A DNA stretch of 64,000 nucleotides from Escherichia coli (GTDB lineage: Bacteria > Pseudomonadota > Gammaproteobacteria > Enterobacterales > Enterobacteriaceae). The number at the start of each line of letters is the position of its first letter. Position 1 is the first letter of the stretch. The DNA lies in the NCBI RefSeq assembly GCF_002854065.1, contig NZ_CP024147.1; one strand, 5' to 3'. The position numbers are program-made. This document shows positions 44,101 through 47,100 of this stretch, piece after piece.

Positions 44101-47100
44101 TGTGCTATTGCCCAGCAGAAATTTTTTAAATTAGTACTGTTCCAGGGGCATTACAAACCTTAAAACATTACTTCAATATAATTAATGTGTATATCATTCT
44201 TGATATTAATTTATGAAGTGAATTTGATATATTCCGAATTCTTAATTTACATTACTAATGTATGGGACATAACGTTAAGATGGCTATGTGCAGATTAAGA
44301 TATCAGGGTGGGGCGGTAGCGTTTACAGATATTAATTAATTGATGAGAGCTATGTTATCCGCACAATCATTTACATCAGCTATTGATATTGAAGATAGAT
44401 AAATAAATATGCTGAGAATTAATGTTAAGGAATCGTAATGGGAAACTTTGATAACTTGCTTTGATTTCATTCTCTATGAAGATGATGTCATCAACACTGC
44501 ATAAAGTGGAAATATTGAACATCAAAGAGAACCATATTTAATAAATAATAACAGAGCGTTTGTGTTTATCTGAAAAATATCATTTCCAGGAGGTAGGATA
44601 TGTCATTAAGGAGAATGACATCTGGTGAATTAGCATTGGCCAGATCGATTTTTGAAAATACAATTGATTATAGTAAGGTATGGATCCACAATGAAAAATA
44701 TTTGCCGGGTCAAGGGGAAAGAACAGCGATGACCCCAAACGGGGAAATGTATTATCCTGATGCTGTTTATAGTTCAGATTATTCATCGCAAACAATGCCT
44801 GGTGATCGTGAAACAGTAGCAGGTGCTTCTCACTTGTTTATTCATGAAATGATGCATGTTTGGCAATATCAGAAAGGGTATGCAGTTAAGTTGCGTGGTT
44901 TATTTTCCTGGGCGGCAAATTATCATTACGATCTTAATTTACAGTCAATTTCTTCTTATTCCATGGAACAACAAGCATCTATAGTTGCTGATTATTGGCT
45001 ATTGATTAACTATGGACTGGTGGCTGATTTGGCAAATGTTAACTATGTAGGTGATACAACTGAATCCGTTAACACTCTATCGGAAAAATACAAAAAGGTG
45101 CTTAATTTATTTCCTGCGGGTGTCATATGAAGAGATTCTTTTTGTTTTTCTTTTTGTCGGGATGCACTGTTGGTGATTATGTTCGCCCATTGTTACCCGG
45201 TAATGTATATTTACAAGATGGACGGGTTTGTTCAAAACCAGACGATGGAGGTATTATTTCAAATTATATTTTATATGAAGGTAAATATGGCAATGCAATA
45301 AAGCTGAAAAGAGTAACAGGTCAGTTCGACCCCGTATGTATTGACATAAGTGAGCTATCTTCAGATGTTATTTATATCGGGCAATATATGCTCTCTTCCG
45401 GAAGTAAAAAAGAATACTATGGTTTTAGAATAATTAGATCCGGAGTACGTATTTTAAGACTTGATGATAACCATATCAAATAACAGATTAAAAATTTTAT
45501 TAGTTTCATTAATGTGCTTTAGGTGAATGTTTTCACCAGGTTAACATGACGGTGCATTCTTCAAGGCATATATGGTTGATAGTATCTTCAGTAGCTCGCA
45601 TAAGTATTGAGATGTTTTACGCCAGTTACGAATATATTGCATATTTTATTCTCTGTAAGATTTCTTATTAGCACTTAGCCATTTCTAGTTAAAAGGATTA
45701 ATTATGAGTTTTGCAGCTACAGATTATCCATCCGGCGCACTAACTGGATCGGGTACACATAACGTGACTTTGAGCGGCAGCGCAGTTCCTGATGGAATGT
45801 TACTGTTTGCAAGCTTAGGGGGTACAGAAACAGTAGGGGAACTATTTACTTATTCTATTAAATTAAAAACTCCTGACATCCTGAACCTGGGCTATGTTTC
45901 CCCCGCCGCAAACCTGCAGCTCAAACCGATGGTGGGCAAAGATCTGTGCGTCCATATCGAACTGGATGGCGGCGGAAAACGTTATATCAGCGGGCTGGTG
46001 ACGGCGGCACGCGTGGCTGGTCATCAAGGACGTTCGGTGGTGTATGAACTGCGGCTCGAACCGTGGTTAAAAATACTGACCCACACTAGTGACTACAAAG
46101 CGTTTCAGAATAAAAACGTGGTGGACATCCTGGATGAGGTACTGGATGAGTATCCCTGGCCAGTGGAAAAACGGCTGGTGGAAAATTATCCGACTCGCGC
46201 CTGGCAGATGCAGTACGGTGAAACAGATTTCGCTTTTATTCAGCGCCTGATGCAGGAGTGGGGTATCTACTGGTGGTTTGAGCACAGCGAGAACAGTCAC
46301 ACGTTAGTGCTGGCTGATGCCATTAATGTCCACAAGGCATGCGCAGATTCGCCGCTGGTGTGTTATTACCAGAAAGGGCTGAAACTGGACAAGGAGTTTA
46401 TCCATACCATCACAGCAAATGAAAGTCTGCGCAGCGGACAGTGGGTGCTGAATGATTTCGACTTTATGAAGCCGCGTTCACTGCTGAAGAGCACCGTGGC
46501 TAATCCGCGTGAAACCGGCCTTGCTGAATATGAGCACTACGAATGGCCGGGAGATTACTTCACAAAGAGTGAAGGTGAAATGCTGACACGCATTCGCATG
46601 GAAGAACAGCGTAGCCCCGGTAGTCGGGTACAGGGCAGCGGCAATATTCGTACCCTGATGACAGGTTTTACCTTCACCCTGGAAAACTATCCGACAGCCG
46701 AAGTGAACCGGGAATATCTGCTGGTACAGACCACGCTATTTATACAGGACAATGCGCAACACAGCGGCCAGGAGCAGCATTTCTCTTACTCAACCAGCTT
46801 TGAACTGCATCCCACCAGCGAAGTTTACCGCCCACAACGAACCCTGAGCAAACCCCACACTAAAGGCCCGCAGAGTGCCATCGTCACCGGCCCGGCAGGG
46901 CAGGAAATCTGGACAGATAAATATGGCCGGGTGAAAGTTCAGTTTGGCTGGGATCGTTACGGTAAGAATGACGAAAACAGCTCCTGCTGGGTCCGTGTCA
47001 GTTATCCGTGGGCTGGTAAAGGATTCGGTGGCATTCAGATCCCGCGTATTGGTCAAGAAGTACTGGTGGATTTCAAAAACGGTGATCCGGATTTACCGAT

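Follow-up and report, generated by a model that had tools for sequence, protein, structure and literature searches.

A predicted Tpe/Tpi-family type VI secretion effector–immunity pair, most likely stranded beside a broken vgrG–rhs operon in Escherichia coli

Results

An AT-rich block between ansP and a vgrG remnant holds two overlapping genes

The window analysed here is the whole stretch of 64,000 nucleotides from the E. coli contig NZ_CP024147.1. Between ansP and a truncated vgrG gene, the GC content falls to 0.30–0.38 (positions ~44000–45700) compared with 0.50–0.55 in the flanks, as indicated by the composition profile. The block contains a two-gene unit, here called the effector and the immunity gene, and its surroundings are as follows:

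42126-43712, minus strand: ansP, neighbour of the AT-rich block
44000..45700, strand not applicable: AT-rich block holding the pair and upstream non-coding DNA (composition profile)
44588..44593, plus strand: AGGAGG ribosome-binding site, 6 nt before the effector ATG (read from the sequence)
44600..45130, plus strand: effector gene, 176 aa, 20.0 kDa, predicted stand-alone gluzincin of the VgrG2b-C-ter/Tpe family (ORF, homology, AF2 model)
44843..44857, plus strand: HEMMH codons (H82-E83-M-M-H86), HExxH zinc-binding/catalytic motif (aligned to VgrG2b H935/E936/H939)
44966..44968, plus strand: E123 codon, Glu of MEQQ, predicted third zinc ligand (aligned to VgrG2b E983)
45127..45130, plus strand: ATGA overlap of effector stop and immunity start (read from the sequence)
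45127..45483, plus strand: putative immunity gene, 118-aa lipoprotein (ORF, NF045617 match, family alignments, AF2 model)
45704..47151, plus strand: vgrG remnant, first ~483 of 665 vgrG codons (TIGR03361, E 2.5e-146); the ORF continues to 47191 in unrelated sequence
47149..47301, plus strand: internal rhs fragment, 153 bp, fused to the vgrG break point (blastn against loci L002 and L003)
47304..47513, minus strand: symE-family toxin gene remnant (annotated by RefSeq in locus L001, 99.94% identical; coordinates transferred to the window)
47827..48963, plus strand: ISAs1-family transposase gene (ydcC), boundary of the island (ORF and annotation)

The original prediction, a 176-aa ORF with a strong ribosome-binding site whose stop overlaps the start of a 118-aa lipoprotein ORF, in an AT-rich block between ansP and a vgrG remnant, was borne out in all these elements. 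The gap between the immunity gene and the vgrG remnant is 220 nt. A promoter and terminator scan upstream of the pair gave counts equal to the shuffled expectation, with no promoter signal above chance, and we therefore make no claim on transcription.

The effector is homologous to the toxin domain of VgrG2b

Among all PDB sequences, the sole phmmer match to the effector was the effector domain of Pseudomonas aeruginosa VgrG2b (PDB 6H56; E 2e-20), with effector residues 4–138 aligned to chain residues 99–233. In this alignment, H82, E83, H86 and E123 line up with the zinc and catalytic residues H935, E936, H939 and E983 of VgrG2b, whose roles have been described, E983 being a crystallographic ligand (PMC6899460). 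The four residues were invariant in 48 homologues with 45–97% identity. The Glu of MEQQ, initially proposed as the third ligand, is E123, located 37 residues after H86. On sequence grounds, the protein is thus genuinely homologous to the VgrG2b effector domain.

Modelling, a check proposed with the original prediction, gave a concordant picture. The AF2 model of the effector reached a pLDDT of 91.8 and a pTM of 0.90, and a Foldseek search of this model against the PDB returned 6H56 as the only significant match (E 8e-9, probability 1.00, TM 0.63; 32% identity in the structural alignment), the next match having E > 2. The effector is thereby predicted to share the 6H56 fold. Moreover, the toxin domain accounts for its whole length: there is no receptor-binding or translocation domain and, as already noticed from the sequence, no signal peptide, the maximum of the Kyte-Doolittle 15-residue windows within the first 25 residues being 0.35. 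The dN/dS ratio was 0.17 within E. coli and 0.155 against Citrobacter, which points to purifying selection on the effector.

The effector is a stand-alone ORF with its own ribosome-binding site and no vgrG fusion, and is therefore not an evolved (specialised) VgrG. No vgrG-like sequence was found upstream of it in 43713-44620 (~890 bp), which speaks against an origin by splitting of an evolved VgrG. A 326-aa Phage_GPD fragment upstream of the effector in Citrobacter is an N-terminal vgrG duplicate and not a fusion partner, whereas fused vgrG-toxin forms do occur in other proteobacteria as ORFs of 1033–1121 aa (four loci). The effector had also been likened to DUF4157-type zincins (PF13699), a label that did not hold, as the 176-aa protein had no match in Pfam-A even at E <= 10; according to Wood et al. 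(PMC6899460), relatives are "frequently annotated as DUF4157". Searches of PADLOC and PHROGs produced no significant match for the pair, and a reading as anti-phage defence or phage proteins is thus without support.

The partner is a divergent lipoprotein of a T6SS immunity family

The immunity ORF begins with MKRFFLFFFLSGC, in which L10-S11-G12-C13 forms the lipobox. Its mature part is 11.9 kDa, with Thr at +2 after Cys13 and two conserved cysteines (C35 and C71). The AF2 model (pLDDT 81.5) is all-beta, and the protein is predicted to form an Ig-like beta-sandwich.

A profile search, as proposed at the outset for both proteins, was informative for the lipoprotein: it matched NCBIfam NF045617 ("putative T6SS immunity periplasmic lipoprotein") over profile positions 7–108 of 119 with E 2.8e-7 and 30.7 bits, which falls short of the curated cutoff of 43 bits. 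The same model scored 34.7 bits for the partner in E. coli A34, 31.1 bits in Citrobacter, and 48–102 bits in six other genera. The search of Pfam-A yielded nothing for either protein, DUF7480 (PF24295) included, even at E <= 10, and the DUF4157 and DUF7480 labels are thus unconfirmed here. In precomputed annotation, all E. coli immunity homologues have no Pfam assignment ("-"), and the Enterobacter, Kosakonia and Serratia partners carry PF24295.

Word-indexed searching with the immunity protein recovered E. coli sequences only; the homologues of other genera were reached by profile search. A profile built from nine partners, this protein included, recovered 135 cluster representatives, with a lipobox in at least 106 of the 121 that are 95 aa or longer, and C13, C35 and C71 were invariant across 75 family sequences. 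Overall, the protein belongs, as a divergent member, to the NF045617/DUF7480 family of enterobacterial T6SS immunity lipoproteins. A direct homology link to PA0261, the VgrG2b immunity protein, was considered and rejected: a PA0261-like protein (L016:794-1291) did not match NF045617 at E <= 1, and hhalign against the 75-sequence lipoprotein alignment gave a probability of 2.5%.

The adjacent delivery operon has been deleted

The vgrG gene of the window is collinear with the intact vgrG of strains A34 and STW0522-31 only to position 47151, where the sequence resumes in the middle of rhs; the rhs fragment is 98.7–99.3% identical to the corresponding mid-rhs segment. The deleted segment comprises the 3' third of vgrG, the eag chaperone gene and nearly all of the PAAR-rhs gene. 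RefSeq likewise calls vgrG a pseudogene missing its C-terminus in the 99.94%-identical genome of strain 100416.

We also examined T6SS-1 at the aspV locus in the two nearest complete genomes, a check confined to this locus and these two strains, so that a T6SS elsewhere in the source genome is possible. In strain CUWW06, only tssA, tssG, tssF, tssE and a tagJ pseudogene are left; in strain 100416, the locus is occupied by a pco/sil island and contains no T6SS core gene. Both genomes are thus without a working T6SS-1 at aspV. Given this and the deletion of the delivery operon, the pair is probably stranded in this strain, and its delivery would have been lost.

The two-gene unit is conserved across Enterobacterales, with variable T6SS linkage

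The unit occurs in 230 of 5426 complete E. coli genomes (~4%), and tblastn confirmed 531 relatives of the effector in a collection with one genome per species. The two genes stay together over 55 species: the same 4-nt overlap is found in 35 of the 55 enterobacterial pairs, and 54 of the 55 partners have a lipobox, 50 of those with exactly two mature cysteines.

In seven sampled E. coli lineages, the order effector–immunity–vgrG–eag–rhs–rhsI is complete, and in two of these seven the effector carries a nonsense codon while the immunity gene is intact. The order effector–immunity–vgrG also occurs in Salmonella arizonae and seven other species. Among 60 species-level enterobacterial loci, a T6SS marker lies within 8 kb in 24 and is absent in 36, indicating that T6SS linkage is not universal; the linkages that exist are all to T6SS genes. 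It should be noted that vgrG adjoins the pair at eight of these loci and hcp lies directly downstream of it at six, which leaves the carrier ambiguous.

The pair is also found on or next to mobile elements. On a conjugative IncF plasmid its neighbour is a Tn3 transposase gene, on an E. marmotae IncF plasmid it is followed directly by hcp, and in a Kosakonia-like contig it lies beside a lysis cassette of holin, lysozyme and Rz genes. Relatives are carried by 61 plasmid records, and several genomes contain 3–5 copies as paralogous pairs.

Discussion

The pair had been put forward as an uncharacterised T6SS cargo metallopeptidase with a lipoprotein immunity protein, similar to VgrG2b. The cargo and immunity assignment is upheld by the 6H56 homology and the NF045617 match. 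The term uncharacterised stands for this E. coli pair, for which no describing paper was found in the literature on the ansP and vgrG locus, MP1 T6SS effectors, Tpe1/Tpi1 and DUF7480, but not for its kind, since relatives have been characterised (PMC6899460, PMC12992299). By sequence, the pair belongs to the published Tpe/Tpi family, which was defined by Wood et al. (2019), who reported that Enterobacteriaceae encode a stand-alone cargo effector with a lipoprotein immunity protein (PMC6899460).

The closest characterised relatives are SARI_02727 and SARI_02726, from SPI-20 of Salmonella enterica subsp. arizonae, a pair predicted in PMC6899460 and validated in 2026 by competition and periplasmic toxicity assays, in which SARI_02727 proved toxic in the periplasm and SARI_02726 neutralised it (PMC12992299). 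The effector described here is 45% identical to SARI_02727 over its full length (E 6e-49); both are stand-alone proteins of ~180–190 aa with HExxH and a downstream Glu. In both cases, the lipoprotein gene overlaps the effector stop codon and vgrG follows the pair directly in the same orientation. The immunity proteins, however, show no significant pairwise similarity (E 0.65) and differ in length (118 versus ~154 aa). Moreover, the SARI pair is located within a complete T6SS cluster, whereas the E. coli pair belongs to an orphan vgrG–rhs island next to ansP, from which the delivery genes have here been deleted.

With VgrG2b/PA0261, the pair shares a homologous toxin domain with zinc ligands and catalytic Glu at aligned positions, and a small envelope-targeted ORF immediately downstream. 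VgrG2b nonetheless has its toxin domain fused to the spike, as a specialised effector, whereas the E. coli protein is encoded by an ORF of its own. PA0261 is not a lipoprotein but a soluble protein of the periplasm with a Sec signal, and a PA0261-like sequence had no detectable similarity to the enterobacterial lipoproteins. VgrG2b reportedly also acts on eukaryotic microtubule components; nothing suggests such a role for the effector here. A third member of the same family, Tpe1–Tpi1 of Acinetobacter baylyi (ACIAD0053/ACIAD0054), likewise combines a stand-alone cargo metallopeptidase acting in the periplasm with a downstream immunity gene (PMC6899460). A transmembrane helix, and not a lipid, anchors Tpi1 in the inner membrane (PMC6899460); its comparison with the E. 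coli lipoprotein is one of published description.

We consider it very probable that the pair is a T6SS cargo effector of the Tpe/Tpi (VgrG2b C-ter/PA0261) family with its immunity protein, most likely stranded at this locus. The effector would be a 20-kDa thermolysin-like gluzincin, in which H82, H86 and E123 hold the zinc and E83 serves as catalytic base. Since it has no signal peptide, it should be harmless in the cytoplasm of the producer, and would become toxic on reaching the periplasm of a target cell, where the VgrG2b C-ter causes mid-cell blebbing and lysis in an HExxH-dependent manner. The immunity protein would be exported by Sec and lipidated at Cys13; with Thr at +2 and no Lol-avoidance signal, it should then be sorted to the outer membrane. 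There, this predicted small, disulfide-bonded periplasmic beta-sandwich may bind and block toxin arriving from sister cells, the ATGA overlap coupling the synthesis of the two proteins. The likely carrier is the VgrG spike encoded by the vgrG–eag–PAAR-rhs–rhsI operon, directly upstream of which the pair appears to lie in most E. coli carriers, or possibly the Hcp tube. In the present strain, the only remaining benefit would be immunity against related E. coli that still fire the toxin.

Whether the pair is truly stranded depends on genes outside the window. The same module could still be an active weapon, loaded on a VgrG or Hcp from another locus and delivered by a T6SS beyond the window. Both genes are intact behind a strong ribosome-binding site, the effector shows the purifying selection described above, and at 20 kDa it is in principle small enough for Hcp-mediated export. 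The hcp genes found directly 3' of the pair in six enterobacterial species and on the E. marmotae plasmid suggest that delivery need not depend on an adjacent vgrG, and vgrG-like sequence occurs at a median of five places per E. coli genome. However, the cognate vgrG, eag and rhs are deleted, the aspV locus of the two nearest complete genomes has a decayed T6SS-1 or none, and the measured selection records history across lineages and not current use in this strain; we thus view continued use as a weapon as possible but unlikely. For established T6SS cargo, it is common to find effector–immunity modules as orphans, far from any T6SS cluster. This commonness weighs against a T6SS-independent toxin–immunity cassette that moves with transposons, plasmids and prophages and is maintained mainly as hoarded immunity, or whose toxin is released by lysis and not by injection, although the 36 loci without a T6SS marker, the multiple copies, the Tn3 and lysis-gene neighbours and the plasmid records would all be compatible with one. 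Relatives also occur in Sphingomonadaceae, which rarely have a T6SS (Wood et al., PMC6899460). Such a cassette is nonetheless highly improbable, as the effector has no signal peptide, receptor-binding or translocation domain, its relatives are toxic only when placed artificially in the periplasm (PMC6899460, PMC12992299), and any linkage found is to T6SS genes. HExxH motifs are common and Pfam, PADLOC and PHROGs assign no significant family, which might have suited an unrelated housekeeping cytoplasmic metallopeptidase lying by chance next to a structural lipoprotein. This reading is effectively refuted by homology unique to a crystallised T6SS toxin domain, by the conservation of the stop/start overlap unit over 55 species, by its location in an AT-rich island and its presence in only ~4% of E. 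coli genomes, and by the adjacent vgrG.

Beyond the preferred reading of a stranded Tpe/Tpi pair, there is a slim chance that the module is more than passive T6SS cargo: a self-spreading cassette selected chiefly as immunity, with repeated inactivation of the effector, or one released independently of a T6SS. The repeated inactivation is suggested by the nonsense codons in two of the seven E. coli lineages. Under the same slim chance, the immunity branch of E. coli and Citrobacter, for which both curated family models (NF045617 and DUF7480) fail, would neutralise the toxin through a different interface. Wood et al. suspected lipoprotein tethers to be the toxin substrate (PMC6899460), and with such an interface a conserved Gly-Asp following the lipidated Cys, invariant in the first nine partners, might mimic these tethers. 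Because only 23 of 54 enterobacterial partners have this Gly-Asp, we retain the idea at low probability only.

The assignment will not surprise a T6SS specialist. In RefSeq, the effector appears either as "type IV secretion protein Rhs" or, like its partner, as "hypothetical protein", and the Tpe/Tpi assignment would correct a misleading name in hundreds of E. coli genomes and in many other Enterobacterales. Being native to E. coli and presumably active on the periplasm of this species, the toxin, together with its cognate immunity protein, would be convenient for suppressor screens and substrate trapping, and delivery could be tested in strains that retain the complete island, such as MP1, SFE8 or AHB3. 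Finally, the locus provides an example of how a T6SS island may erode: here the delivery genes go first and the effector–immunity pair survives, while in other lineages the effector is knocked out and the immunity gene is kept.

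The predicted effector–immunity pair and its surroundings

The original observation of two overlapping ORFs in an AT-rich block was borne out on the window sequence, in which the pair and its neighbours are placed as follows.

Features of the window around the pair
43839-43973: hypothetical ORF, 44 aa (RefSeq annotation)
44588-44593: AGGAGG, ahead of the effector ORF
44600..45130, + strand: effector ORF, 176 aa
45127..45483, + strand: immunity ORF, 118 aa
45704-47513: cut vgrG, rhs fragment and symE remnant (from comparison with strains A34 and STW0522-31)

The ATG of the immunity gene and the TGA of the effector gene share ATGA. 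The effector (20.0 kDa, pI 5.5) carries HEMMH at residues 82-86 and Glu 123 within MEQQ, and no hydrophobic N-terminus was seen in its 176-aa sequence. At its N-terminus the immunity protein has MKRFFLFFFLSGC, a lipobox in which the Cys is residue 13 and position +2 is Thr. The block holding the pair has a GC content of 30-38% versus 50-55% in its flanks, and lies between ansP and the 5' portion of a vgrG gene (TIGR03361, E 2.5e-146). The AT-rich stretch of ~890 bp from ansP to the effector (43713-44599) holds no convincing ORF and is 84% identical, with indels, between E. coli lineages, compared with ~94% for the adjoining genes.

The effector is a homologue of the VgrG2b toxin domain

Of the profile searches originally proposed for the effector, Pfam-A, like NCBIfam, was silent on the 176-aa protein. 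The sole phmmer match among all PDB sequences was 6H56 (E 2e-20, residues 4-138), entitled 'Effector domain of Pseudomonas aeruginosa VgrG2b'. An AlphaFold2 model built from an alignment of 48 homologues (45-97% identity) reached a pLDDT of 91.8 and a pTM of 0.90, and Foldseek against the PDB again returned 6H56 (E 8e-9, TM 0.63), with no other match having E below 2. VgrG2b, which had been offered as an analogy, is in fact a homologue of the effector.

Counting residues along the phmmer alignment (chain numbering offset 765), the four active-site residues H82, E83, H86 and E123 align with H935, E936, H939 and E983 of VgrG2b. They are invariant in the 48-homologue alignment, as are Q89, Y108, Y110, Y120, Q125 and D131. 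In VgrG2b, a thermolysin-like gluzincin, zinc is coordinated by H935, H939 and E983, and each of E936A, H935A and H939A abolishes periplasmic toxicity (PMC6899460). The Glu of MEQQ, proposed earlier as third zinc ligand, corresponds to the ligand E983. In RefSeq the effector appears as 'type IV secretion protein Rhs' or 'hypothetical protein' (in strain 100416, L001; STW0522-31, L002; the compared locus L003; and others). It is neither type IV nor Rhs, and the RefSeq name is misleading.

By homology, the effector would be a zinc metallopeptidase that stays harmless in the producer cytoplasm and is toxic in the recipient periplasm. VgrG2b C-ter leads to blebbing at mid-cell and to lysis; it showed no hydrolase activity on peptidoglycan and, in vitro, lowered the amount of membrane-associated lipoproteins (PMC6899460). 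When directed to the E. coli periplasm, SARI_02727 of S. arizonae, to which the E. coli effector is 45% identical, is toxic; SARI_02726 neutralises it in part, and it contributes to T6SS competition (PMC12992299). The adjacent VgrG would be the obvious candidate carrier. Given the 20-kDa size of the effector and the recurrent hcp linkage described below, Hcp may be the carrier instead.

The lipoprotein is a divergent putative immunity protein

The immunity protein gave no match in Pfam and matched NCBIfam NF045617 ('putative T6SS immunity periplasmic lipoprotein') with E 2.8e-7, at a score of 30.7 bits, below the curated cutoff of 43. A word-indexed search found relatives in E. coli only. In Citrobacter, Enterobacter, Atlantibacter, Kosakonia, Pantoea, Dryocola and Serratia, we examined the ORFs 3' of effector homologues. 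All have a lipobox, and NF045617 scores were 52-102 bits in six of the seven genera, 31 in Citrobacter and 34.7 for another E. coli allele. The lipobox Cys, the Gly-Asp after it and two further Cys were invariant across the first nine partners, two E. coli alleles included. The profile of these nine retrieved only 135 of 1.84 billion cluster representatives, and nearly all of those of full length are lipoproteins whose mature part has two Cys. C13, C35 and C71 are invariant in a 75-sequence family alignment. Taken together, score, lipobox, Cys pattern and profile results indicate that the protein belongs to the enterobacterial Tpi-type immunity lipoproteins as a divergent member. Thr at +2 provides no Lol-avoidance signal; the S. 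arizonae orthologue shows outer-membrane enrichment (Wood et al., PMC6899460).

Kinship with P. aeruginosa PA0261 is undetectable by sequence: a PA0261-like protein did not match NF045617, and hhalign against the immunity family gave a probability of 2.5%.

Among the profile matches, P0221 and P0259 open with a C-terminal effector part (…YSMEQQAQIIAD…) and run on into immunity-like sequence, probably through frameshifts or gene mis-calls and not as true fusions.

Effector dN/dS was 0.17 within E. coli (only 10 substitutions) and 0.155 versus Citrobacter, compared with ~0.5 for the immunity gene within E. coli (12-14 substitutions). Such values are typical of a conserved toxin paired with a fast-evolving immunity protein.

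Relatives beyond E. coli

Scanning one genome per species with a pattern yielded 531 confirmed relatives; 80 loci were kept. Clean pairs, with a stand-alone effector of 152-227 aa and a partner of 101-155 aa, occur at 55 of the 60 Enterobacterales-like loci; the partner has a lipobox in 54 of them, and the 4-nt overlap of the E. coli genes recurs in 35. A T6SS marker lies within 8 kb at 24 of the 60 loci and at none of the other 36. Eight have a same-strand vgrG downstream within 1.5 kb, including S. arizonae (L039), which agrees with SARI_02727/02726 in position and effector length (189 aa), and six have hcp directly downstream. Outside Enterobacterales, the effector domain is often fused to VgrG (ORFs of 1033-1121 aa), in agreement with Wood et al. 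(PMC6899460).

Mobile settings were also observed. Relatives were present in 61 plasmid records. On the E. marmotae conjugative IncF plasmid NZ_CP099346.1 (L017:3338-7969), a Tn3-family tnpA is followed by effector homologue, immunity lipoprotein and tssD (hcp), a cassette apparently carried by a transposon. In a Kosakonia-type JGI metagenome contig (L010:4686-6958), an effector–DUF7480 pair sits right behind a phage holin, lysozyme and Rz cassette, with further phage genes around it, and may be prophage cargo. In Citrobacter farmeri (L004:7000-7980), a 326-aa fragment lying 20 nt upstream of the effector is a second copy of the N-terminal portion of the vgrG further downstream (77% identity over 244 aa), which suggests that tandem vgrG copies recombined around the cassette.

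The final ~3.3 kb of Pseudomonas phage vB_PaeM_GXNNB6 (PV425003.1, Casadabanvirus; L016), labelled 'complete phage genome', hold a vgrG2b-like 3' part, a PA0261-like ORF and a host-like gene. Since transposable phages package host flanking DNA, this end of the record is probably host sequence.

Five genomes carry at least three paralogous effector–lipoprotein pairs each, mostly distant from T6SS genes.

Paralogous pairs, by compared locus
Rosenbergiella gaditana: L019, L025, L041, L053
Enterobacter sp. Ag1: L022, L024, L028
Cedecea neteri: L018, L036, L067
Serratia plymuthica: L026, L034, L056
Kosakonia cowanii: L031, L068, L075

The E. coli island and its decay in the window

Of 5426 complete E. 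coli genomes, 230 have the pair, in every case on the chromosome. Seven sampled lineages (STW0522-31, A34, MP1, A35, SFE8, AHB3 and 4314) share the gene order ansP, effector, immunity, vgrG (~665 aa), DcrB/Eag-type chaperone, PAAR-Rhs, Rhs immunity, symE and, further on, ISAs1. In two of the seven, STW0522-31 (L002:14852-15382) and 4314 (L105:8001-8531), the effector carries W104*, and both its immunity partner and the vgrG–eag–rhs genes further down are intact; these loci look like cases of toxin lost and immunity kept.

Collinearity of the window with intact islands ends at 47151, at about codon 483 of vgrG, where the sequence passes into a 153-bp piece from inside rhs (47149-47301), followed by the symE remnant and ISAs1. 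Compared with A34 and STW0522-31, deletion has removed the vgrG C-terminus, eag (the chaperone gene), the bulk of PAAR-rhs and the gene for Rhs immunity. Over 19.4 kb, 11 mismatches separate the window from strain 100416; over the island, the window is 100% identical to CUWW06, except for an IS1 present in CUWW06. At aspV–yafV of CUWW06 (L015:10262-18561), just tssA, tssG, tssF, tssE and a tagJ pseudogene are left of T6SS-1, and beyond the latter lie IS3, an rhs fragment and symE. The aspV site of 100416 (L099, L100) holds a pco/sil copper/silver resistance island, a CbtA toxin module and an rhs remnant, and T6SS core genes are absent there. Given that delivery genes are deleted and that the nearest genomes have no working T6SS-1 at aspV, the present role of the pair in the window is most likely immunity only.

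Relation to the known family

The proposed T6SS effector–immunity interpretation is supported by the 6H56 homology, the NF045617 match and the vgrG context. The family is already published, with Tpe1/Tpi1, VgrG2b C-ter/PA0261 and SARI_02727/02726 among its members, and stand-alone enterobacterial forms with lipoprotein immunity were explicitly noted by Wood et al. (PMC6899460). We found no published description of either the pair in E. coli or the island at ansP. To this known family, the E. coli pair adds an immunity branch that is divergent and a state of decay that is instructive.
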